Virus record (IMG/VR): IMGVR_UViG_3300035698_009252
Span: 1 to 64,000 of that record
DNA: 64,000 bases
From: a virus
Strand: one strand, 5' to 3'
Shown here piece after piece: positions 1-25,445 of the stretch. Position 1 is the first letter of the stretch. Each line of letters opens with the position of its first letter. A program made the translations under genes and the position numbers. The notes under the pieces are model-generated. The model saw nothing but the letters and a program-made list of their open reading frames with translations, ran no database searches and was not told the origin of the DNA.

Positions 1-677
1 ACCCACTTATTCCCAAACTTCCTCTGCGTGGGATACATTAGCAACCGTCGCTCATCACTCTTCAGGACCCGAACCCACGAATAGTACGACTCATACGTGT
101 GCAGCTTTTCCAGCACGGCGTCCCTGGCCCGTATAAAGGCATTCTTGCCAAGCACCTGCATCAACTTCCTGCCACCTTTCTTCATCAGGATGACGACCAT
201 TTCCTTTGTCGGAATGTCTTCAGAAATCTCCTCCATCCCGGAAATTTCCTCGGTCACTGGGATATCGACACCCGTCTTGGATGCTACCTCCCGGCGCTTC
301 TCCAGGAACTTCCGGCCATGCCCACCATGCGGCTCCGAAAGTCCCAAAACCCCCATAACGTACACATGACACATCTCGTGAAGCAAAATAGAGTCAAGGT
401 ACTCAGCATCCCTCTTGAGGAAATTCGATATCTCCAGCTTCTTGAGGGTAATCGTCGCGCCCTCGCCCGTTATCCGATACAACATCGGATTCTCAACCCT
501 TGCCGTAGCCCGCACCCGACCACCTACCGTTTTTGAGCGCGTCCACCCTATCGGTATGTTCGGCAACTCCCCACCAAAGGCTCGGGCATTCCAATGCCGG
601 TACCTGCCCTTCAGGTCATAATCCGTATCTGCCGCCAATTCACGGGCAAGAACCAGAATCTCTCGAATTTCATCCAT
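1..677 (-). CDS. SprT-like zinc metalloprotease with N-terminal leader (3'-partial; absent from the ORF track)
   Basis: Manual translation from ATG at 677 (GGGAG upstream): MDEIREILVLARELAADTDYDLKGRYRHWNARAFGGELP...LDSILLHEMCHVYVMGVLGLSEPHGGHGRKF. The frame is open to the window edge. HExxH plus a downstream HG..F is the SprT signature. Confidence 0.85.
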   Translation of the reverse strand, partial: MDEIREILVLARELAADTDYDLKGRYRHWNARAFGGELPNIPIGWTRSKTVGGRVRATARVENPMLYRITGEGATITLKKLEISNFLKRDAEYLDSILLHEMCHVYVMGVLGLSEPHGGHGRKFLEKRREVASKTGVDIPVTEEISGMEEISEDIPTKEMVVILMKKGGRKLMQVLGKNAFIRARDAVLEKLHTYESYYSWVRVLKSDERRLLMYPTQRKFGNKW

Positions 678-694
678 TCAGGCTCCCTGGGCGG

Positions 695-1834
695 CTACTC
701 GTAGCCCTTGGATTCTTTCCTACGCTGCTTGCCCCTGACGATGTTCTCAACACTTGAGAGACTTAAACCACGGGCAATCATCATAATCCTCGGAGTCATA
801 CCGATGCGGCCATAAGCATTGCCACCGACATACACAACGTCATCGTTGGCATCCCTATAACCGAAGACCACAAAATAGTGGAACTTGTTACTGCGCTCAT
901 CAATGAGTGTCAGGAATTCCGAATATTCCACGTCACCCGCACCCATGCCCTCAGTCAGAATCTCTTCCATATCTCCGAGCACGTGGGATTTCCACTGCTC
1001 CGTCACGGGCTTGCGGTCAATCGCCACCTTGGTCTGCTTGGTTTTCTCGGGCTTCGACTCGACAGGCTCCACATCCTTCATGTCGACGACTTCACTGGCC
1101 GGAAAGATTTCCCGGCGCATAGCCTCGGCATAATCATCCGGCGTTCCGAACTCACGAACAAACCCCTGTTCCATGCGTTGAATCTTGGCAAATGCCTTGA
1201 AAGACAAGCGCTCCAACTGCTCTTTGACGTTCATAATGACATCACGCATCCCAGCGGCTGCCGCCTCGCCTGGCTTGCCGTTGTATGACGCAGCGATGTC
1301 GTAATCGTGAGCCGCATTCTCCAGGCCACTCTCGATATCGTGCAATACATTCCATGCAGATTCCGAATGCCTTGCGTCAAGGGCCTCCTCCACGGGGCCT
1401 TTATGAGCCGCAACCACGCTTTTGGCAACCCGGTCAATTAAATTGTCTCTGTCTTTCATAGCTTTTTTCTTCCTGTCTCTGTTCACATGATTCTTTGCAA
1501 TCCCAACGCCCTCTTCAATCTTACCATTGCCCTTCACAGCCTTGTAAATGGCCCGTATGACGGCCTTTGCCGCATCCTTGCCTGCATGTAGCTCAAGAGT
1601 CTCTACGGCGTTCTCAATAGCCTTGGAGCCCTTACCGTCCGCATATCCACTAACGGCCTTCTCTAACCGGTCAACCCCACGCTTTACCGTGAGGTCATCA
1701 AACAGCTCTTCCTTCTCGTCCGGGTCTCCTTTGCCATCACCAGGCCGGTCATTGGTCCATTTCTTCGACCCAGAGTCATAAGTGACCCGCCAGTCCAGCT
1801 TACTGCCAGGCTTCGTTCTCTCAGTCTTGGTCAT
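695..1834 (-). CDS. Multi-module putative head/internal protein with C-terminal WGR-like domain
   Basis: Likely start MTKTE at 1834 (ATGA overlap with the upstream stop). C-terminus ERSNKFHYF...AYGRIG...RRKESKGY resembles WGR. Contains an internal leader-like segment LIDRVAKSVVA. Confidence 0.65.
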   Translation of the reverse strand: MTKTERTKPGSKLDWRVTYDSGSKKWTNDRPGDGKGDPDEKEELFDDLTVKRGVDRLEKAVSGYADGKGSKAIENAVETLELHAGKDAAKAVIRAIYKAVKGNGKIEEGVGIAKNHVNRDRKKKAMKDRDNLIDRVAKSVVAAHKGPVEEALDARHSESAWNVLHDIESGLENAAHDYDIAASYNGKPGEAAAAGMRDVIMNVKEQLERLSFKAFAKIQRMEQGFVREFGTPDDYAEAMRREIFPASEVVDMKDVEPVESKPEKTKQTKVAIDRKPVTEQWKSHVLGDMEEILTEGMGAGDVEYSEFLTLIDERSNKFHYFVVFGYRDANDDVVYVGGNAYGRIGMTPRIMMIARGLSLSSVENIVRGKQRRKESKGYE

Positions 1835-2490
1835 CTTTCTGAAACCAGTACACTGAGCACACCCTTGTTGCCCGTCTGTTCCCACTCAAGCTCCTCAGCC
1901 TGACTGATTTCAACCTGGTTGCCGGGAATATAAGACGCATAGCCGGAGGGCTCATCGTATTCCATGCCTCGACCTTTTGGAGTCGCAGCAAGCAGACCGT
2001 CAGCAATTAGGTCTTTCACGGTCTTTGCCGCCTGCTCGATGGCTTCCCCGACACGCTCTTCCTGTTTCGGAGTCATGCCCTTGGCCGTGAACTGAGAAAG
2101 TAGGACCGGACTCGCGTTAAGCACCTTCACCACGGCCTTTTTCATCGCCGCCGCGCTGGGATACCCCTTTGTGCTCAGGTTGTTGCTTTGGTCGTAGCCA
2201 CCATCCCCATAAATGAGCATCTCTGTGCGCTCTCCCGAGTAGCCACCAGGACGGCCTGAGAGTTTGTATACGATGAAACGATTTGAGCCCGCCCAAAGGC
2301 TCTTTTCCCAGATGGCGTCACCAATCTGCCGGTCTTCGACACGGAACCTCTGCTTGCGGAACTTGGACTGGAGCCACCCCACGAGCGCATCCCAGTCCTT
2401 GTTGGCGTCATATGAGAAGCCGTAAGCCACCCGGTCGCGGCCTGTCAGCTCACGGGCCACGTTCAACAATTCAAAGGCAATTTTGTCCAT
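1831..2490 (-). CDS. Leader-bearing hypothetical protein (putative head cargo)
   Basis: 219 aa, begins MDKIAFELLNVARELTGRDRVA. Confidence 0.7.
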   Translation of the reverse strand: MDKIAFELLNVARELTGRDRVAYGFSYDANKDWDALVGWLQSKFRKQRFRVEDRQIGDAIWEKSLWAGSNRFIVYKLSGRPGGYSGERTEMLIYGDGGYDQSNNLSTKGYPSAAAMKKAVVKVLNASPVLLSQFTAKGMTPKQEERVGEAIEQAAKTVKDLIADGLLAATPKGRGMEYDEPSGYASYIPGNQVEISQAEELEWEQTGNKGVLSVLVSER

Positions 2491-2501
2491 TTCCAGGTCC
2501 T

Positions 2502-3683
2502 TCAGCGACGGTTGCTCTTATTGGCAGCCAATGCCTGTTCAAAGACACCACGCCCAAATACCTTGTCATAGGCTTTACGCATCAGACTTTTGACACCGAT
2601 GGCCTTGCCACGAGGAGCCAACTCCCGGAACTTGCTCAGGAATGCCGGATAATCCTTCCCGAAGTATTTCTTCGAGATGGCATCTGAGATGTTGTAGTCC
2701 AACGAGCCAAGAAAGACGTTCACCGGGTCATCAAAGTTATGCCGCCGGAGATAGGCTTCAATGAAGTCCGAATACTCCGCCGCTACATCCCGACGTATTT
2801 TGACCACTTCGTCACGGATTTCATCGCGACGCTCACTGGACTGGCCCTTCTCCCAATACTCGGTGTACAGTTCCACGAACTGGCGCAAAGCCCGGTCTCC
2901 GGCCACACGGCTGGCCGACGCTTTCATGTCCCGCTTCCACAGCTTGTCTCCCCTCAACCTGGCAATGTGTTCCAAGTCAGCCCACATCTTAGGCTTGGAC
3001 GAGTAGTGTTGGTCGGAAAGTTCAATCCCTCCTACCACCTTGGCAACCCAATGAGGAGCGGGACTTGTCTTTCTGACCGCCTCAATCTCAACGCCCCCAA
3101 TGGTCTTTTTCTCTCCAGCAGTACGGTCAGAACCACGCCGGTCCTTTTCCCACCGCCGGTACGTAGAATCATCACTCTTCTTCACGAAAAAGCCAACCGG
3201 CATCATGCCCAACCGGACTTGGCGCTCGTTGAGCCGGATACCCTGCTTCCGGGCAAACTTGATAATGCCCTCAGCAATCTCCTCCAGGCTTCCAAACTTG
3301 CCAATCACCACGTCATCGGAGGTATCCTGGTCCTTGTCCGCCACATACATCACCCGGACAGAGCCGGTCGTCGCACGAGGAGTCAACCGTTTTAAGTAAC
3401 CCCCAACGAACCCCATTTCGAACCCGGCACCTTCCATCAAGTCCTTGATAGCATAGGTCGTATCACTGGAACCAAAGCCTTCACCCTCACCCCAGGAATC
3501 ACGCAAGCGTTCTGCTACATCCTGAGCCGATTCCCGAACCTCACGGGAACGTGCTTCCTCGCGGTCAAGGAAGTTTAACGAAAGAGTGCGGTCAATCAGA
3601 CTCTTCGGGGAAATCACCCATTCGTCATTCGCACCCTTCAACTCGTGAGCCAGGGAAATCAACTGTTTTGCTATCTTTTCCAT
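2502..3683 (-). CDS. Leader-bearing multi-module hypothetical protein (putative head cargo)
   Basis: 393 aa, begins MEKIAKQLISLAHELKG. Internal DRTAG, SRVAG and MYVAD junctions. Confidence 0.7.
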   Translation of the reverse strand: MEKIAKQLISLAHELKGANDEWVISPKSLIDRTLSLNFLDREEARSREVRESAQDVAERLRDSWGEGEGFGSSDTTYAIKDLMEGAGFEMGFVGGYLKRLTPRATTGSVRVMYVADKDQDTSDDVVIGKFGSLEEIAEGIIKFARKQGIRLNERQVRLGMMPVGFFVKKSDDSTYRRWEKDRRGSDRTAGEKKTIGGVEIEAVRKTSPAPHWVAKVVGGIELSDQHYSSKPKMWADLEHIARLRGDKLWKRDMKASASRVAGDRALRQFVELYTEYWEKGQSSERRDEIRDEVVKIRRDVAAEYSDFIEAYLRRHNFDDPVNVFLGSLDYNISDAISKKYFGKDYPAFLSKFRELAPRGKAIGVKSLMRKAYDKVFGRGVFEQALAANKSNRR

Positions 3684-4054
3684 CAGGATGCTCCCGTTAT
3701 CTCTTCGGTGACTATCTTTTCAATTTGGCCGTCACGCTCCAACCGCCGAACAAGGGGATTGGACAAATCCTGTTTCTTTCGGCCATCCAGGTCGAGATGG
3801 GCATCGGTGATGTTCCAGTTATCCAAACTCACATCCAAAGAACTTTCAGTCGTGATGTCGTATTCAACCTCGATAACCAGTTCAACCCATCCGCCATCGT
3901 CATTCAGCGCATCATCCAGCATCTGAAGAAGCCGACGACCCAGGATGTCCGGGTCAATCCTGATTTCCTTGATTCCCGAATCCCGGTCACGCCGGGCTAC
4001 CCGCAAGGCTACCCGCAAGGCTACCCGACTCGCTATTCTCTCAAATCTGTTCAC
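3683..4054 (-). CDS. Leader-bearing acidic hypothetical protein
   Basis: GTG at 4054 with AGGAG RBS gives MNRFERIASRVALRVALRVARR. The longer ORF-track start overlaps the neighbouring gene. Confidence 0.65.
   Translation of the reverse strand: MNRFERIASRVALRVALRVARRDRDSGIKEIRIDPDILGRRLLQMLDDALNDDGGWVELVIEVEYDITTESSLDVSLDNWNITDAHLDLDGRKKQDLSNPLVRRLERDGQIEKIVTEEITGAS
3995..4027. repeat. 12-bp tandem repeat (GGCTACCCGCAA x2.75) encoding RVAL-RVAL-RVA
   Basis: Directly visible in the sequence. Confidence 0.9.
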
Positions 4055-4268
4055 ACTTGCTCCTATCGGGACACTTGGAACAGAATTTCTGTCGGAACCG
4101 CTTTGCATTTCCTGGCAACAACCTCGACTGGTAATCCTGTTTTGCCTTCTCATACGTTACCGCGCCCTGTTTCTTCTCCATCCGACGTTGATTCGCGGCA
4201 ATCCCACCCCGAATCATCCGAATCTCGGCCAGAAGATACTCGTGAAACCTTGTGCAACTCCGGGACAT
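4041..4268 (-). CDS. Small hypothetical protein with C-terminal CxxCx5C
   Basis: 75 aa, GGAG RBS, ends FCSKCPDRSKCEQI. Confidence 0.55.
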   Translation of the reverse strand: MSRSCTRFHEYLLAEIRMIRGGIAANQRRMEKKQGAVTYEKAKQDYQSRLLPGNAKRFRQKFCSKCPDRSKCEQI

Positions 4269-4331
4269 GATAGTCTCCCTGCCCCGAAAAGCATTTTAAG
4301 GTGGACAATTTGTCCACCCTAAACTCTCCCG

Positions 4332-4754
4332 TTACCCCAAGTCTTCCAATACCTCACCGACCGACGCCTCAACGGCCTTTATCTGGTCATCCGAGAGTGG
4401 ACAATTTCTGGTGTAGACAACTGCCGACTCATCCGCGACGAAATTCACGGAGAATGACGAACCAGATACTCTCGTTTTCCGAGAAATGCCACGCTCCACC
4501 GCATTTACCTTGCCTTGTGCCGCTTCGAGCGTACGAACAAGGTCCACCACCGGCATGTCTTTCACTTCCACCGGAAGCGAGACCGTGAAACCTTTATTTG
4601 TGACCTTGACCGTCGCGTTGAGCTTGGCCTTCGGCTGAATGATACCCTCACTCACCGGACCTGGCGTTACCACCGGCCCCGTCACATCCGCCTCATCCCG
4701 AGAGGTTTCTTCTCTGTAGTCAGTCATCATGGGCCTCCTCTTTTTCTTACTCAT
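4332..4754 (-). CDS. Hypothetical protein
   Basis: 140 aa, tiles with neighbouring genes. Confidence 0.6.
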   Translation of the reverse strand: MSKKKRRPMMTDYREETSRDEADVTGPVVTPGPVSEGIIQPKAKLNATVKVTNKGFTVSLPVEVKDMPVVDLVRTLEAAQGKVNAVERGISRKTRVSGSSFSVNFVADESAVVYTRNCPLSDDQIKAVEASVGEVLEDLG

Positions 4755-4769
4755 CTTTTTCAGGGCTCC

Positions 4770-5246
4770 TTAATCCTCGTTGACTTCAACAAGGTCGACC
4801 TTGTTGAATTCCCTCTTCATGCCCCCGAGTTTGTACTTGAGTTTCTCCATTTCCCGGACAATTTTCTCAACCGCCCCTGGGTCTGACAAAAACTCCCGGT
4901 ACCGGGCCAACATCTGAGCCTCACGTTGGCCCAGAAACACATCATCCCAGGCACTAACAATCGCCTGCTCCACATCACTATACATCTGCTCCGCATCATT
5001 GCTGTATGCCGCACTCCGGCCACGCACCCACTCATTACCACTGTCCACAACCCGTTTCAACGCCAATTCAGCTCCCAATAGCTCATTGATGGCCGTCGAA
5101 ACCTCACTACCCACCGGCTCAAGATACTTCACTTTGCTGCCAAGACGTAAGAAATCTTTGAGGCGTGTCAAGGCCCCACGGATTTTGCTGGTGCCATCTA
5201 CCAAATCCTCGACGTTCCTATCTTTGTTCCCAGCGGTTTTCATCAT
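4770..5246 (-). CDS. Two-module hypothetical protein (putative head cargo)
   Basis: 158 aa, MMKTA|G at the start and GRSA|A internally. Confidence 0.6.
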   Translation of the reverse strand: MMKTAGNKDRNVEDLVDGTSKIRGALTRLKDFLRLGSKVKYLEPVGSEVSTAINELLGAELALKRVVDSGNEWVRGRSAAYSNDAEQMYSDVEQAIVSAWDDVFLGQREAQMLARYREFLSDPGAVEKIVREMEKLKYKLGGMKREFNKVDLVEVNED

Positions 5247-5512
5247 TTCTGCCGTATCACAAATCCCATTTCTCTAATCTCACGCTTTTTCTTGTTCAAC
5301 TCCCGACGCACCAAGTCTTCCAGGTGCCGGAATTGTGAGCCCATTGCCTTATAGAGCACGTCTTTCAACTCTTCAATCGCGTCCCCTTCAATCCACCGAC
5401 TACCATCGGCAGGCTCGAAAAAATCACTTATATTGAAGTAATACGGCACATCCCCGGAATCAGCTACCACGCTGCGGGCCAATCGCTCTGCTATTTTTGC
5501 TTCTCTTTGCAT
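5243..5512 (-). CDS. Leader-bearing small hypothetical protein
   Basis: Begins MQREAKIAERLARSVVA|DSG. Confidence 0.65.
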   Translation of the reverse strand: MQREAKIAERLARSVVADSGDVPYYFNISDFFEPADGSRWIEGDAIEELKDVLYKAMGSQFRHLEDLVRRELNKKKREIREMGFVIRQK

Positions 5513-5516
5513 GGTT

Positions 5517-5933
5517 CTACCTTTCAAATCCCAGACGTTCCATTTGTTTGCCTAACTTCCCCGCCGACGCCTTTGCGCCCCCAATAAAAGACGTGTACCG
5601 CGTATGCGCATCAAGATAATCGGATTCTGCCGCCCGTGCCTGGCGTAATAGCCCATCCAGGCGCTGTGTCGCCACCACTACGGCCCGTTCTCGCTTCGAG
5701 GCACCCGGTACCCCGGTGATGGCACCCTCGGCCTCCTGTAGCCGTTTCAGGGCCTTGGTTAGAAGGACACTGGGCAATTCCCTTTCGAGAACCCCTCTTT
5801 CTGTCATAGCGTAAGCTTCCAACCATCCCGCCGCCAAACTAAGCACACTGTCGAAATCCCCACGAGCATCATCATTGCCCGATTCAGGATACCCCTTTAC
5901 CAGTTTTTCAGCAATACGCTCCATCCGTGACAT
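5517..5933 (-). CDS. Leader-bearing hypothetical protein
   Basis: Begins MSRMERIAEKLVKG. AGGAGG lies 8 nt upstream of ATG 5933. Confidence 0.65.
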   Translation of the reverse strand: MSRMERIAEKLVKGYPESGNDDARGDFDSVLSLAAGWLEAYAMTERGVLERELPSVLLTKALKRLQEAEGAITGVPGASKRERAVVVATQRLDGLLRQARAAESDYLDAHTRYTSFIGGAKASAGKLGKQMERLGFER

Positions 5934-6153
5934 TCGCATGCCCTCCTACCCTTGACCCTAGTATCAAAAAAAACGCAGACTTTCAGCCCTTTCCCAGCCC
6001 ACTCCCTGGACAAACAGAGAGGGAATGTAAGCCCCTATATAGATATCCCCGGCTCCGGCCCTGTTAAACTATACGCCCGTGGGCTTTTCAGAGAAGGCCA
6101 TGTCACTGCAAATCCCACATTTTGTAGCTGCAAATCCTGTTCTAAGTGTATAG

Positions 6154-7125
6154 TTGGACATGAATACAGTTCAGGAGGTGAAGCATCTTGTGCGTCGGGT
6201 TCGTTCGGCGAAGACTTATCAGGATTGGGTGAAGCGGAATCGGGCCGCATGGTGTTTCCGGTGTGACGCAGGCTCAGAGTTGGAGTGCCACCACATTGTC
6301 ACGCTCTACCACATTGTGCTGGGCATCTGGAACCTGTATGGAGACTCCAACGAGGTATTCAACCACACCCTATCCATCCACCAGGACGACAAGGTAGAAT
6401 GTGTCACCTTATGCTCCAAATGTCACGGAAAACGGCATCCGGGTAGGATTGCCGTCTCATCTGCCAAGAACCTCCGGGCACAGGCATGGGCAGCAATCCC
6501 CAGGGTTTTCTGGTTCCCCGTCAGTTACTCCACCAAGGACAAGAACCGGGATGCCCTTAGATTGGTCAGTTTGCAAGCCCTTTACGGGGTAGGATGGTAC
6601 ATCCTCAGTGGCAGGATGGAGGACCGTATCATCGAGTTTGACAGGAGACGTTTCGCCGAATTGCTGGGCAAGGAGCCGGGAATGTCGTTCAACCGGTCAT
6701 TCGACAAGGCCCTGCATGCGCTTGAGCGCATCGATGTGTTGGTGGGTAAGCACCGTTCCAAGAATCATGTGGAAGTCCACATTGCTCCGGCCTACATTGA
6801 GCGGCTCATGGATAATCCATGGTTCTTTCCGTTGGAGGAAGTCCGTACGGCCAACACATTGACGCTCATGTTGCGGTGGCAACTCAGTCACCAGAGCCGT
6901 CGTAAATTCTACCGCATAAGCCTGGATAAGCTGAAAATAGGCTTGGGCTTCAGGACAGACAGGCCATCGTTAGTCATCAAGTCGCTTCAAAAAGCGTGCG
7001 AAGGCATTCCCTGGGCCGACTTGACGGTTGAAGACGATATGATGTGCCACTTTGAAATGAAGCGTCGTTCGGCTATTCCGGTCTTTACGCTTCGAGAGGT
7101 CATGGCCGACTGTCTGGAGCAATAG
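6154..7125 (+). CDS. HNH-type zinc-finger domain fused to Rep_3-like tandem winged-helix domains
   Basis: N-terminal CFRC...ECHH...VTLCSKCH (HNH-like). C-terminal IEFDRRRFAELLG...ALHAL and RISLDKLKIGLG...SLQKACEGI resemble WH1/WH2 of plasmid initiators. Only convincing plus-strand gene in the window. Confidence 0.6.
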   Translation: MDMNTVQEVKHLVRRVRSAKTYQDWVKRNRAAWCFRCDAGSELECHHIVTLYHIVLGIWNLYGDSNEVFNHTLSIHQDDKVECVTLCSKCHGKRHPGRIAVSSAKNLRAQAWAAIPRVFWFPVSYSTKDKNRDALRLVSLQALYGVGWYILSGRMEDRIIEFDRRRFAELLGKEPGMSFNRSFDKALHALERIDVLVGKHRSKNHVEVHIAPAYIERLMDNPWFFPLEEVRTANTLTLMLRWQLSHQSRRKFYRISLDKLKIGLGFRTDRPSLVIKSLQKACEGIPWADLTVEDDMMCHFEMKRRSAIPVFTLREVMADCLEQ

Positions 7126-11912: not shown

Positions 11913-13231
11913 GTCTCCTTGGTAACGGGTGTTCTAACGCCTTTCAGGCAATCCGCCGACACGGGATGAGCCGGGTTCAGTGGACACACCTTGATATCCC
12001 TCAACAATCGGTCTTGCTCGACAAGCACCTTGGTCAATTCCTCCCGTTTCTCCTCTCCCCGACGGCCCAATTCCCTAACGTCGTCATCATGCGTTGTCCA
12101 CAATGTCATCGTTATCTGGGCCAACTTTATATTCTCAATCGCCTGCTCCGCCGCTTCAAGGTGTTTGGACACCTTAGATGCTTTGACGACTTTTTGCAAC
12201 CGGAGTTGTTTGTCGTCGATATCGGTCTGACATTTTATCGCCTCATTCAGAACCGCTTCCGCCTCATTCGCCCGGTCAATAGCTTCTTGGGCTTTGCTTA
12301 GATGGCTTGTCGCCTTGACATGGTCAGGGACCTGGGACATGGCTTTTGTGAGCCGGACAACCTCTTGCTCGGCAGATACGGCACTTGTCCGCATCTCCTC
12401 TGCTGTGGTTTTCACATCAAGGGCCTCTCGAACGTTGTCGAGGTGTTGCTCTGCCAGCTTTGTGTTGGGGATGGCCAATAACTGCCGTTGCAAGGCCCCT
12501 ATTTGCCCCTCAAGGGCCGTTCCCTCGGTAAGCATGGCCTCCGCATTGACGGTAGCGTCAAGGGCCTCCTGGTGGCTTGTGAGGTGTTTTTCGGCCTCTC
12601 CCAATACTTGGCCTTCGGCTTCTAGCTCTTGTTTGTCGTGGAGATGGGTTTTTAGGTCCTCCATCTGTTTCTCGGACTGCTTGATTTCGCGCCCGGAGCG
12701 GTGGTTGTCAAGGCTCACGGCCTTGATAATGCCCTCAATACCGGAAAGCCCGGAGATTTCATCGATGATTTGTGCTCGAATGGAGCCACTTGCTTTTTTG
12801 TCCCCGATGCCCGCCAGCATGAAATGGGATTCGAGCTGGTCCATGATATTGACGGGGACTTTCGCGTCACCAAGCGTCACCACACCCATACCGAGAATTT
12901 CGATTGCCTGGGGAGGAGCCGCGACTTGACCAATCTTATCCAGATGGAGGGTGTTGCCGCCCTTGGGAGTGATTTCCCATAAGTTGTCATTCGGCCCACG
13001 GGTAACTTGAACGGAACCCTTATCGGTTTCTACGAGCACCTTGCAGAACTTGGCACCGACGCGAACCGACTTCGGGTCGAAATCGTTATAGGCAGGCAGC
13101 TTGAGGGCTCGCACGATGCTGGTCTTGCCCGCATTGGACAAGCCGAAGATGACGTTCAGCCCGGCGGACAGGTTCTCAATGCGGGTATGCTCGTGTGCCT
13201 CGAAGTTCCAGATTTCAATTGCTTGCAACAT
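11909..13231 (-). CDS. sbcC: SbcC/Rad50-like ATPase, N-terminal half only
   Basis: NFEAH...GLNVIFGLSNAGKTS (Walker A), coiled coil, ends at CPLN...C. No signature or Walker B motif. Confidence 0.8.
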   Translation of the reverse strand: MLQAIEIWNFEAHEHTRIENLSAGLNVIFGLSNAGKTSIVRALKLPAYNDFDPKSVRVGAKFCKVLVETDKGSVQVTRGPNDNLWEITPKGGNTLHLDKIGQVAAPPQAIEILGMGVVTLGDAKVPVNIMDQLESHFMLAGIGDKKASGSIRAQIIDEISGLSGIEGIIKAVSLDNHRSGREIKQSEKQMEDLKTHLHDKQELEAEGQVLGEAEKHLTSHQEALDATVNAEAMLTEGTALEGQIGALQRQLLAIPNTKLAEQHLDNVREALDVKTTAEEMRTSAVSAEQEVVRLTKAMSQVPDHVKATSHLSKAQEAIDRANEAEAVLNEAIKCQTDIDDKQLRLQKVVKASKVSKHLEAAEQAIENIKLAQITMTLWTTHDDDVRELGRRGEEKREELTKVLVEQDRLLRDIKVCPLNPAHPVSADCLKGVRTPVTKET

Positions 13232-23285: not shown

Positions 23286-24500
23286 TTACTCCAACATCTG
23301 TATGTCCCGCTTATCGTCAAAGAACCGAGTCTCCGAGTCATCGAACTTGTCCATCGGAAAAGCACCCACTGCTCCGATTTTCACGTTGTCCCGGAAAAAC
23401 TCCATCGCCGCCTTGAACACGAAAAACTTCATTGTGTCCAACCCATCTCCGAGGGACACGATAAGCATAGAGTTTCCAGCCCTGGACGTGTGGGGTGTCA
23501 CCGCCTCTATCTGTCCGAACAAAAGCACCTTTCCCCGGTCGCCCATCCCGTGAATCGGCGTCCATTTCTTCTGTTTGATAAGCTTCTGGTGCTGCTTATA
23601 CAATGGCTCCCTGGACAGGCACAAGCCTATGGCTTCCTTCTCCAACTCCACCCACTTGTCATCCGTCCTCACGGGTGGCTCTCCATCCTTCTTGTTCTTC
23701 CTCACTCGAAAGTATTCAGCAATCACTTCGTTGCGCGTGCCGAATTTTACAAAAGCATCAGCAGCGATAAGAGAAAGCACTTGCCGCTTGTCCGGCCTAC
23801 GACTGGATTTCTTTCCGGTCTTCCCTATCGTTGTAACCTTCACCCGCTCGTGGAAGTCCTCTATGCTCTCGATTGGCTGGAAAGACTCGATGACGGCAGC
23901 CTTTGATGCCACAAACTTGATATGGCTCATGGAGAACCGGATAGCCCCATCCGCGTTCATAGTGAAGCCTTCGCGGCTCTTGTTGACATGCGGCCCAAGG
24001 ACCTCCACACCCCTGCGACGGGCATAATTGATGTAGTTCACCATGATATTGCTCGACCCGTGCTTTTTCTTACCAGGGTCGGTATTGCTGATAAGGGCAC
24101 ACATGTACTCGGGCAGGAAATTGTGTTTGAGCCACAACTGCGCCGTACTAACAGCACTATATGCTGTCGCATGGGATTTGTTAAAACCATACCCGGCAAA
24201 CGTCTCAAGCAGACTCCAAATCACCTCTACGTCCTTAAGGGTACACTCTCCGGCATCAATGTGGCCTTGTGCCCCCGAAATAAACTTTGGCTTCAAGGCC
24301 GCCATCTTCTCTGGAATCTTCTTCGCAATCGTCTTCACAAATTTGTAGGACTCGCCGGGACTGAACCCAGACAACTGCTGTGCAACCTGCATACAGTTGT
24401 GGACAACTACCCCGTTCGCGATGAAGTTATGGTGTTCTTCAACGGTGAGGTCGTACACAGGATGCTCACCGAGACAGTCAAATGAAACCAGTTTCGCCAT
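23286..24500 (-). CDS. dnaE: DNA polymerase III alpha, C-terminal part, with N-terminal split-intein IntC
   Basis: 35-aa IntC ...VYDLTVEEHHNFIANGVVVHN, then CMQVAQQLSGFS, FAGYGFNKSHATAY, HhH and OB regions. Confidence 0.93.
   Translation of the reverse strand: MAKLVSFDCLGEHPVYDLTVEEHHNFIANGVVVHNCMQVAQQLSGFSPGESYKFVKTIAKKIPEKMAALKPKFISGAQGHIDAGECTLKDVEVIWSLLETFAGYGFNKSHATAYSAVSTAQLWLKHNFLPEYMCALISNTDPGKKKHGSSNIMVNYINYARRRGVEVLGPHVNKSREGFTMNADGAIRFSMSHIKFVASKAAVIESFQPIESIEDFHERVKVTTIGKTGKKSSRRPDKRQVLSLIAADAFVKFGTRNEVIAEYFRVRKNKKDGEPPVRTDDKWVELEKEAIGLCLSREPLYKQHQKLIKQKKWTPIHGMGDRGKVLLFGQIEAVTPHTSRAGNSMLIVSLGDGLDTMKFFVFKAAMEFFRDNVKIGAVGAFPMDKFDDSETRFFDDKRDIQMLE
24396..24500 (-). mobile_element. 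Split intein, C-fragment (35 aa)
   Basis: Block F (VYDLTV) and block G (HN) followed by Cys+1. Confidence 0.92.
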
Positions 24501-25396
24501 TATAAATCCCTAGCCAATTCCGCAGTTGAACCCATCAATACCTTCTCGATGTCGTCCACCACCTTGCCAATCCGAGCCATGATGTCGCTCTCCCAATACC
24601 TAATGACATTATACCCTGCCCTCCTGGCCAGAAGCGTGTAATTTGTGTCAATATGATATTGACGCTTCTGATTCGGAGTGAGGGCAAATTTCTTCGGATT
24701 TCCGTGCCAGTAGTCCCCATCCACTTCAACAACCAAGCGGCCATCAATCAAAAAATCATAACAGTGATTGCTAATCGAAATGTCGTTGAACTGTTCGTCA
24801 AAAGCAATGCCCCTCTTTTCTAGCCATTTCCTCATCCGAATCTCGGGTTTCGTGTTCTGTCCCGCCCCGATTCCCGCTTTCAGCCTCCTAATATTCCCAG
24901 CTCGGACACCAGTCTTGATGTCTTTCCTTGCCTTCTTATTCTCATCTGTGTTGATACACCATACTTGGTGCCTCTGAAGGCCCGCCAACCCTTTAAATTC
25001 TCTTCCACAATTATAACACCTCAGCAACAACCTATCGTGATGGCAATGAGCCTTGTGGGCGCGGAGTGACGTATTGCTCTCAAAATCTTCACCACACCTT
25101 TCGCACTCGAATACTCCCTGGACTCGGATGTTCTTTTGCCCCTCCGCTATCTTTTTTTTATGTTCTGCCGTGAACTTCCTTCCGAGATTGTGCCTTCTCC
25201 CACACTTGGGGCCACAATACTTCGTACCTATTTTCGTGCCGGAATTTTTCTTGATGTACGGCTTGCCGCATCCTTGGCAGACATACTCCCTTTTTACATC
25301 CCGGTATCGGTAAGAATTCGCACAAGCCCTTGAACAAAATCGGCTACCTCTCGCCCTTTGCTTCTCAGTCAGTGGCTTTCCACAAAAACAAGTCAT
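24500..25396 (-). CDS. Free-standing Vsr/DUF559-like homing endonuclease with several zinc fingers
   Basis: TKPE..M, YDF, VEVDGDYWHG, RYWESDI. N-terminal FCSRAC, YCGPKC and two C2HC-like fingers. Confidence 0.85.
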   Translation of the reverse strand: MTCFCGKPLTEKQRARGSRFCSRACANSYRYRDVKREYVCQGCGKPYIKKNSGTKIGTKYCGPKCGRRHNLGRKFTAEHKKKIAEGQKNIRVQGVFECERCGEDFESNTSLRAHKAHCHHDRLLLRCYNCGREFKGLAGLQRHQVWCINTDENKKARKDIKTGVRAGNIRRLKAGIGAGQNTKPEIRMRKWLEKRGIAFDEQFNDISISNHCYDFLIDGRLVVEVDGDYWHGNPKKFALTPNQKRQYHIDTNYTLLARRAGYNVIRYWESDIMARIGKVVDDIEKVLMGSTAELARDL

Positions 25397-25445
25397 AGCA
25401 TCCTCCACACTTGGTGTTATCACTTATGTAGAGAATATCAAACAA

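Follow-up and report, generated by a model that had tools for sequence, protein, structure and literature searches.

Why do neighbouring genes of a phage, whose products are otherwise unrelated, begin with a related short helix? The question is raised by the genes between positions 5933 and 3 of the window, i.e. the stretch of 64,000 nucleotides that was analysed (positions 1 to 64,000 of the IMG/VR virus record IMGVR_UViG_3300035698_009252). The complete record has 139.6 kb and represents a genome that is 43% complete. At this fragment end of a giant uncultured phage, nine genes are tightly packed on the minus strand. Their modules are mutually unrelated, and most of these modules have at their start a short helical tag, of which two versions exist. 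A preliminary description had noticed six related leaders as well as a seventh, internal copy, and had read them as a portable, cleavable label by which proteins are loaded into the phage head. The features of the cluster are as follows.

5942..5968, minus strand: promoter-like half motif (TTTGATAyT, spacer, AAGGGTAGGAGG), directly 5′ of g5933
5517..5933, minus strand: g5933, 138 aa; short-form tag at residues 1-14 (nt 5892-5933), cargo without assignment
5243..5512, minus strand: g5512, 89 aa; short-form tag at residues 1-17 (nt 5462-5512)
4770..5246, minus strand: g5246, 158 aa, no tag; bipartite, its modules meeting at residues 80/81 (nt about 5007)
4332..4754, minus strand: g4754, 140 aa, untagged
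3683..4054, minus strand: g4054, 123 aa, GTG start; short-form tag (nt about 3995-4054)
2502..3683, minus strand: g3683, 393 aa; divergent long-form tag at residues 1-17 (nt 3633-3683)
2895-2927, minus strand: internal Met and short tag in g3683, opening its C-terminal module (residues 256-392)
1831..2490, minus strand: g2490, 219 aa; long-form tag at residues 1-17 (nt 2440-2490), followed by R-D-R-V-A
695..1834, minus strand: g1834, 379 aa, N-terminus untagged; module A at residues 2-126
1409-1459, minus strand: internal Met and short tag in g1834
695-934, minus strand: WGR-like domain of g1834 (residues 301-379)
3..677, minus strand: g677, truncated at the contig end (at least 225 aa); residues 1-16 (nt 630-677) possibly a divergent tag
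261-602, minus strand: SprT-like metalloprotease domain of g677 (residues 26-139), HExxH intact

The long form of the tag has about 18 residues and ends with L-x-A/G, the short form has about 11 residues with the core I-A-x-R-V-A, and no Pfam family covers the tag. It reads as a two-heptad amphipathic helix which, according to the alignment, is broken by charged residues (R, E, K/R, E/D) at nearly invariant positions. These charges inside the helix rule out a reading as Sec signal peptide. The RR-x-F-L-K motif does not occur in the tag, and neither an uninterrupted hydrophobic core nor a twin-arginine motif is found ahead of A-x-A, as Sec or Tat signals would require.

Start codons are in place for all six genes with a proposed leader (ATG at 677, 2490, 3683, 5512 and 5933, GTG at 4054), and most of these starts are preceded by a Shine-Dalgarno-like sequence, e.g. 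AGGAGG 5′ of the g5933 start and AGGAG 5 nt before the GTG of g4054. A short pattern, x-R-[FML]-x-[RK]-I-A-x-[RK]-[VLM], is common to g4054, g5512 and g5933; it has six matches across the whole proteome, all of them N-terminal. The short-form HMM assigns 18.5 bits to g5933 and 19.2 bits to g4054, both of which served as seeds for that HMM. The tag of g4054 is lengthened by a 12-nt unit in triplicate; a hairpin and a CTTGAAAACAGCCGAG element were looked for upstream of this gene and were not found. g2490 is a firm member of the long form, with the genome-derived HMM (26.7 bits, E 3.5e-8) as well as with an HMM built from public proteins only (E 4.7e-7), and has no match in the ESM Atlas. For g3683 the HMM gives a marginal match (E 0.12) whose alignment begins at residue 1, and the gene is grouped with g2490 in the tag cluster (blastp-short, E<0.01). 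The tag likeness of g677 lacks statistical significance (E about 2). Four of the six proposed leaders (g2490, g4054, g5512 and g5933) are supported, g3683 is a borderline case, and g677 has at most a possible one.

Conservation acts on the tag peptide rather than on the DNA. Where tag residues are identical, the codons differ in 547 pairs and agree in 434, and nucleotide identity is 0.62 within the tag compared to 0.27-0.30 in the flanks. When N-terminal windows of 28 aa were compared, the 33 tagged genes of the genome yielded 145 similar pairs, while internal control windows yielded a single pair. Beyond the tag, the proteins are unrelated, as had been described: in an all-vs-all blastp, the similarity between tagged proteins ends after about 19-25 residues. 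The sole exception is the WGR-like end of g1834, which matches the C-terminus of gene 86205-87179 (37% identity, E 2e-11). While g1834 itself has no direct Pfam match, gene 86205-87179 passes the Pfam WGR cut-off (23.3 vs 22 bits), and the WGR assignment of the module that had been listed as cargo is an indirect one by way of this gene. The SprT cargo proved correct directly, with a Pfam SprT-like match of g677 well above the cut-off (E 9e-10, 38.8 bits vs 25.6).

Comparison with relatives indicates where modules may have been joined. When the plus-strand anchor gene was used as query for syntenic clusters, L015 was the only one found among viral contigs, and none was found among metagenome contigs. 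The homology of g1834 to L015 stops at residue 126, just ahead of the internal tag; this is the seventh copy already reported, preceded by an in-frame Met at nt 1459. A second internal copy, after a Met at nt 2927, was detected in g3683. Residues 256-392 of that protein have 64% identity to a module found at the N-termini of protein P0001 and of an L015 gene product, each of which opens with its own Met and short tag; close relatives of g3683 were not found in INPHARED phage records or viral contigs. Residues 3-80 of g5246 have 61% identity to an L015 ORF that ends there, the rest of the protein being missing from that ORF, and the 19-aa tag of g5512 has 63% identity to the tag of an L015 gene that carries other cargo. 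Judged from these breakpoints, tag boundaries appear to be the places at which modules were fused and separated; this would account for the internal tag copies and for the junctions that had been noticed. In public data, 17 proteins carry multiple copies, and multi-tag proteins of polyprotein-like build occur. As to the junctions themselves, DRVA (g1834), SRVA (g3683) and GRSA (g5246) match homology breakpoints against L015 and P0001. The MKTA at the start of g5246 is not conserved in the L015 orthologue, and the general motif [KR]-x-A, from which a processing system had been deduced, occurs at chance level (31 observed vs 26.2 ± 4.2 in shuffles). The pattern [DS]-R-[VT]-A, which was chosen after seeing the data, is enriched (5 observed vs 0.2 expected) and corresponds to the short-tag core.

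Not one of the 33 tagged genes is found among the 74 replication and tail genes at 6-72 kb (Fisher p = 4e-9). Six-frame HMM matches are restricted to the coding strand and lie directly after start codons. Tagged cargo elsewhere in the genome includes a CCA-adding enzyme. In public data, 248 protein clusters carry the tag at E <= 1e-3, and it begins at residues 1-4 in 125 of 148 cases (84%). Internal sites and C-termini are also occupied, and some small proteins are tagged at both ends; for one double-tagged protein, P0047, AlphaFold without alignment gave a pLDDT of 44. With a 73-aa tagged protein as query, a word-indexed search returned 3 proteins only, and a 25-aa tag had no tblastn match in phage records. 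The top profile matches, P0005 and P0007, were discarded as false positives: they are surface proteins of bacteria, and their repeat is unrelated.

The two forms occur on one orthologous family. Among DUF5661 orthologues, one and the same N-terminal slot holds the short form in 12 cases and the long form in 7, while others are untagged there, and from this family the long and short forms appear to be interchangeable. AlphaFold models the tag of DUF5661 as a separate helix of lower confidence that precedes a well-folded domain (pLDDT 92), and the model had no match when compared to the PDB by Foldseek. Tags are exchanged between phages as well. The nearest huge-phage relative, LR745208, has a capsid protein which is 69% identical, and two cargo families are common to both phages. 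The LR745208 versions bear their own, different tag of 29 aa, and homology starts right after the tags. Long and short tags are both absent from LR745208, and the long tag is absent from Tunturi_5 and phage G. In phage G, which is cultured, 19 proteins bear a tag particular to this phage (M-K-R-L-x-K-K), always at the N-terminus and with no internal copies. Several of these proteins are ADP-ribosyltransferase-like, and the main texts of the phage G papers make no mention of the tagged gene products. The tag is an address module, specific to each phage, that can be separated from the unrelated proteins on which it sits. The portability that had been ascribed to it is borne out: it is selected as a peptide, is kept off replication genes, is exchangeable between forms and phages, and is attached to unrelated cargo.

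The surroundings of the tagged genes connect them with the head genes. A regular expression scan of the genome with the promoter-like motif found 5 matches, all on the coding strand. Besides the half motif 5′ of g5933, these are four copies of the full 19-nt motif, two of them 5′ of head operons (131523, 118305), one at 97895, and one at 91095, where a tag array starts. Some non-structural genes (25451, 31625) have the motif ahead of them as well. Some of the tagged genes sit within head modules, and L013 has five of them directly upstream of the protease. A conserved small protein that follows the protease (114257-114565) has a C-terminal tag-like helix, here and in L013. Scaffold-like proteins are encoded at 112323-113450 and 113453-114154. 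The protease itself (114556-115620) matches the head-maturation family phrog_18299 (E 3e-11). It matches no Pfam peptidase family and, by sequence, no PDB chain, and for this reason no cleavage rule can be given for it. Similarity of the tag to the C-termini of protease and scaffold is not significant. The capsid protein N-terminus was also considered as tag-like, and this resemblance is not significant either. An R-V-A at the protease N-terminus is probably a longest-ORF artefact, as the L013 orthologue starts 25 residues later.

Peptides that direct proteins into capsids are known from other phages. The capsid-targeting sequence (CTS) of phage T4, found on IPI-III and Alt, is the only conserved part of otherwise variable anti-defence proteins and directs them into the scaffolding core (PMC3012670). 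Like the CTS, the tag is a short N-terminal peptide common to otherwise diverse proteins, and the tags on ADP-ribosyltransferase-like proteins of phage G recall T4 Alt. In contrast to the CTS, to which it has no sequence similarity, the tag is an 11-18 aa helix that ends with Ala or Gly, not with Glu; where the T4 site is (L/I)-x-Glu, the tag ends with L-[TVM]-[AG] (LTA in 81 of 139 copies, a terminal Glu in none). There are 33 or more tagged genes here compared to about four in T4, the tag has two forms with internal and C-terminal copies, no protease recognisable as the T4 gp21 type is found in the 43% of the genome covered, and packaging is proposed from sequence. For DarB of phage P1 (Dar anti-restriction system), the N-terminal 30 residues are enough for a reporter to be taken into the capsid, and the delivered cargo counters host defence (PMC9024508). 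That signal belongs to a single protein, whereas the tag is family-wide, and no sequence relationship is seen. Giant phages such as phiKZ and SPN3US are reported to have many packaged proteins that are processed at short motifs (PMC10052503, PMC7411985). Their propeptides, unlike the tag, are not one shared portable element, and tag cleavage in the phage analysed here is putative. Head cleavage motifs of phiKZ-like phages end in Glu, whereas the conserved tag boundary is a small residue. The C-terminal tail of the HK97 maturation protease, the C-terminal helices of the P22 scaffold and the cargo-loading peptides of encapsulins bind HK97-fold shells, a short terminal peptide or helix being enough for docking to the inner capsid surface. 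A C-terminal position is possible for such peptides, as for the small head-module protein here. We know of no sequence similarity between any of them and the tag and, to our knowledge, none recurs on dozens of unrelated proteins within a single phage.

As the best explanation we tentatively suggest that the cluster is a cassette array of tag and cargo modules. By way of the tag, proteins would bind to one shared partner that is produced along with the head genes, most probably within the procapsid as it assembles. These cargo proteins (SprT-like protease, WGR modules, CCA-adding enzyme) would be packaged and then delivered with the DNA, and the prohead protease may trim the tag after its terminal small residue. 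Capsid loading combined with Ala-specific cleavage, as originally put forward, we consider possible rather than probable. The number of tagged proteins, 33-45 in the 43% of the genome that is covered, is high for cargo of a capsid and counts against loading. Because the tag is also internal and C-terminal, removal after Ala would not be its whole logic, and C-terminal tags go beyond a simple N-terminal propeptide model.

The two-heptad amphipathic helix would also suit docking or oligomerisation with a partner that is not in the capsid interior, such as a hub or coiled-coil bundle complex, or the virion exterior. Tags at N-termini, C-termini and internal sites fit this role, the small proteins tagged at both ends suggest bivalent linkers, the small head-module protein is tagged at its C-terminus, and the swap of tags between phages is compatible with any phage-specific partner. 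However, a CCA-adding enzyme, which acts on tRNA, and a SprT-like protease make an exterior location unlikely, and the embedding of tagged genes in head modules favours head assembly, so that we are inclined to doubt such a role. It is still less probable that the tag, instead of being a sorting label, is a leader recognised by an enzyme that modifies the protein or by a protease that processes it, or that it signals degradation or timing. Conservation does end sharply at L-x-A/G, with small and acidic residues thereafter. Yet the radical-SAM family PF04055, to which the radical-SAM/SPASM maturase of a RiPP-like leader would belong, is absent from the 139.6-kb record (43% of the genome) while controls were positive, no candidate enzyme co-occurs in L013, L014 and L015, and internal and C-terminal copies are a poor fit to a degron or leader. 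Finally, the shared N-terminus might have no addressing role and be a remnant of duplication or 5′-end recombination in a fast-evolving multigene family, given the tandem gene arrays and the frequent fusion and fission. This reading was already disfavoured, and we consider it very improbable: the flanks are at random identity, so there is no DNA-level cassette, the cargo sequences are unrelated, the same cargo has different tags depending on the phage and is untagged in some, and the tag has been retained across all 248 public clusters.

Returning to packaging by a partner made with the head genes, this could be one case of an ancient programmable cargo-loading system shared by phage-G-like megaphages. 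A short basic-hydrophobic helix at the N-terminus, diverged into dialects of the individual phages, would be read by head assembly. Tens of proteins, among them a tRNA-repair enzyme, the SprT protease, ADP-ribosyltransferases and many without assignment, would be loaded, some of them as multi-tag polyproteins cut at L-x-Ala, and each virion would inject a large, rapidly reshuffled arsenal. We regard this wider scheme as speculative and rather unlikely.

Should the tag prove to be a loading signal, the principle known from T4 and P1 would no longer concern a few proteins but a quarter of the genes of a giant phage. This would help to explain the role of many small orphan genes in huge phages and would provide a simple sequence rule that predicts virion-delivered proteins in metagenomes. 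Being portable, such a packaging tag could also serve to bring foreign proteins into large capsids. The two forms and the phage-specific tags represent a natural experiment on the co-evolution of tag and receptor. With its own tag on 19 proteins, phage G makes the idea accessible to direct bench testing, partly with existing proteome data. It was the missing tags in LR745208, Tunturi_5 and phage G that led to the discovery of the tags which these phages have of their own.

The amphipathic helix that opens six genes of the window is much more common than these six copies, as became evident from a listing of all N-termini of the whole genome. For the six genes, the start codons and peptides of the preliminary description are correct, and SD-like sequences lie upstream of most of them. 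For the genome-wide scan that the preliminary description had proposed, a tag HMM was iterated from a seed of 18 clear copies; at E<0.01 it matched 28 genes. All significant matches of a six-frame search are on the coding strand, and nearly all lie 1-3 residues past a start codon. An unbiased comparison of N-terminal 28-aa windows gave 145 similar pairs among 33 genes versus a single pair for internal windows, and in all-versus-all blastp the similarity between tagged proteins stops after ~19-25 residues. Between 6 and 72 kb none of 74 genes is tagged, versus 33 of 108 elsewhere (p = 4e-9).

The tag is a portable, phage-specific label at the peptide level, carried by unrelated cargo, and modules are joined at tags. 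Among 14 ungapped tags, identical residues are encoded by different codons in 547 pairs versus the same codon in 434, and nucleotide identity drops from 0.62 within the tag to 0.30 and 0.27 over the flanking 54 nt on the two sides. What is conserved is therefore the peptide and not a promoter-RBS-start cassette.

There is a long form of the tag (~18 aa) and a short form (~11 aa). That both kinds of N-terminus belong together, as originally proposed, is supported by the exchange of forms among homologues of one gene, and by its structural model:

125457-125870, head module, short-tagged gene with a Pfam DUF5661 domain.

Its 73 homologues, several of them on contigs of 150-340 kb, have one N-terminal slot before the domain, which holds the short form in 12 (by HMM) and the long form in 7, the others being borderline or without a tag. 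The AlphaFold model (52 sequences, mean pLDDT 92) shows the tag as a short helix of its own, modelled at lower confidence, with a coil between it and the domain.

When 1.84 billion representative proteins were searched with the long-form profile, 248 clusters were found at E <= 1e-3; the two top matches were rejected as unrelated repeats of surface proteins. Of the 148 genuine matches (median protein length 113 aa), 125 have the tag beginning at residues 1-4. Two or three copies are present in 17 proteins, in some of them at both termini. It ends with L-[TVM]-[AG], followed by small and then acidic residues, and no Pfam family covers it. The cargo is almost entirely unannotated. Many long tags are followed by a small module, [IM]-[ED]-F-P-[TS]-x-D-A-x-D-K-Y-[ML]-K-x-H-P-D-A-D-K (public proteins P0021, P0044, P0123, P0010, P0048), which may be a second portion of the tag or else its most frequent cargo.

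In the window cluster of nine minus-strand genes (named by start coordinate), the six proposed leaders fared differently. The long form is firm in g2490 (E 3.5e-8, or 4.7e-7 when the HMM comes from public proteins only) and the short form is found in g4054, g5512 and g5933; support is marginal for g3683 and lacking for g677. The short-form pattern has six matches in the proteome, all N-terminal. One of these tags has undergone a recent slippage event:

Window 3995-4054, minus strand, tandem triplication of a 12-nt unit in the g4054 tag, encoding three L-R-V-A repeats.

A relative, L015 (IMGVR_UViG_3300001533_001980), is syntenic with the window over ~50 kb, including the cluster-bordering gene 6154-7125, with 50-77% protein identity. 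Its equivalent cluster holds several short-form tags. In the 52-kb L015 record the long-form HMM has no match at E<=1; read by eye, L015 gene 9986-10885 has a long-form-like stretch at its end. Homology to L015 is patchy and breaks off at the junctions that had been postulated in g3683, g1834 and g5246. Residues 256-392 of g3683 correspond to a standalone L015 gene, which opens with its own Met and a short tag. In g1834, residues 2-126 are kept, and homology stops just ahead of the internal Met and tag. Residues 3-80 of g5246 are kept, and the L015 ORF ends at that point. These breakpoints mark the internal tag copies as scars, or as functional joints, where tag-bearing modules fused in frame. 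Each of the two internal Mets is preceded by a weak SD-like sequence, and translation may also start there. As a distinctive junction motif [KR]-x-A has to be abandoned, its frequency being at chance level; [DS]-R-[VT]-A, the core of the short tag, is enriched 25-fold. The L015 homologue of g1834 module A (12093-12421) is split across two reading frames, either by a frameshift or through a sequencing error. Within ~1-2 kb of this gene the L015 contig and the window's contig both terminate, so this region may be hard to assemble or close to a genome end.

The source record (139,603 bp, one virus, with the window as its first 64 kb) is classed as linear in IMG/VR, with a CheckV completeness estimate of 43%. 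Gene calling by codon usage gave 183 genes, 176 on the minus strand. The window encodes a collagen-like tail fibre and a replication and recombination module with a split DnaE-type polymerase, helicases, primase, UvsX-like recombinase and RuvC-like resolvase. The head module, outside the window, encodes the large terminase, a topoisomerase IB-SprT fusion, head maturation protease, acidic scaffold-like proteins, an HK97-type capsid protein and a likely portal (653 aa), the last assigned from its size and position alone.

Genome 126490-127569 (L012:2490-3569), minus strand, topoisomerase IB of eukaryotic/poxvirus type (Pfam E 4e-31) with a C-terminal SprT-like module.

The fusion gene is directly downstream of the large terminase, and its SprT part and g677 both match phrog_6361.

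The capsid protein is 69% identical to that of the uncultured 485-kb phage LR745208, 48% to that of Tunturiibacter phage Tunturi_5 and 38% to that of Bacillus phage G; by this sequence the source phage belongs with these three. Both tag forms are absent from LR745208. There, 11 proteins carry a different N-terminal tag of 29 aa, and two of them adjoin the capsid gene on either side. This tag consists of two helices around an N-P turn, and a 594-aa ORF contains an internal copy. In phage G a short basic tag (M-K-R-L-x-K-K-A/S or M-S-R-L-R-K-L-A) opens 19 proteins and is never internal; we found no mention of it in the phage G papers examined. Examples are:

LR745208.1 398171-398575 and 389893-390948 (among loci L023-L047), LR745208 tag.
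NC_023719 16055-16369, 28218-28733 and 35181-36314 (among loci L048-L072), phage G tag.

Four phage G carriers are placed among head genes. Several of the tags open an ADP-ribosyltransferase-like domain (gp53 has a weak Pfam PARP match), and four run into an H-G-T-S/D start typical of such folds. Two cargo families are common to the source phage and LR745208 (39% and 42% identity); in each phage they bear that phage's own tag, and homology starts directly after the tags. The CCA-adding enzyme is tagged in the source phage and untagged in Tunturi_5 and phage G. A basic-basic-aliphatic-aliphatic-basic-aliphatic-Ala pattern is common to the first helix of the LR745208 tag, the phage G tag and the short form; this suggests common descent, for which the stretch is too short to be proof.

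Two classes of promoter-like sites were found by motif scan:

Genome 131523, 118305, 114209, 97895, 91095, 76031, 75315 and 69245; window 25451, 31625 and 5968; all minus strand.

The phage-specific class is a 19-nt motif, TGATAATTCTTTGATATTC, followed ~6 nt further on by ATAGGTGGA (A-T-A-G-G-T-G-G-A). This pair occurs ~40 nt upstream of head operons, the scaffold-like gene, a structural block and the position where the big tag array begins. The window cluster is preceded by a half-copy (5942-5968), and the motif is also upstream of two non-structural genes. The sigma-70-like class has an extended -10 (TGnTATAAT) upstream of several replication genes, e.g. primase and helicases.

As to the destination of the tag, we infer a link to the head. 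In the relatives L013 and L014 (96% identical capsid protein), five tagged genes are directly upstream of the protease; there as well as in the source phage, the small protein after the protease has a tag-like helix at its end (E 5e-6 in the source phage). We tentatively regard procapsid loading as the single most likely reading, because of the embedding in the head module and the promoter-like motif shared with head operons, the kind of cargo in some cases, and the T4 and P1 precedents (PMC3012670, PMC9024508). Docking of the tag to a non-capsid partner is a serious rival. Less likely is a leader recognized by an enzyme, since the 139.6-kb fragment, estimated as 43% complete, contains no radical-SAM gene. 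Putative cleavage after the terminal Ala/Gly is possible. The head protease could not be assigned to any family of known specificity, and C-terminal and internal copies need an explanation other than such cleavage.

Three further features were noted:

Window 6154-7125, plus strand, HNH-like gene (C-x-x-C...H-H / C-x-x-H N-terminus, weak PHROG HNH match).
Window 24500-25423, minus strand, 307-aa gene between the halves of the split DnaE-type polymerase, with the phage-specific promoter-like motif upstream (3 mismatches).
Window 28950 and genome 105469, minus strand, two exact intergenic copies of a hairpin followed by CTTGAAAACAGCCGAG.

The HNH-like gene, with the RuvC block on one side and the tag cluster on the other, is the sole sizeable plus-strand gene of the region and is antisense to all its neighbours; its L015 counterpart is 65% identical over the full length.
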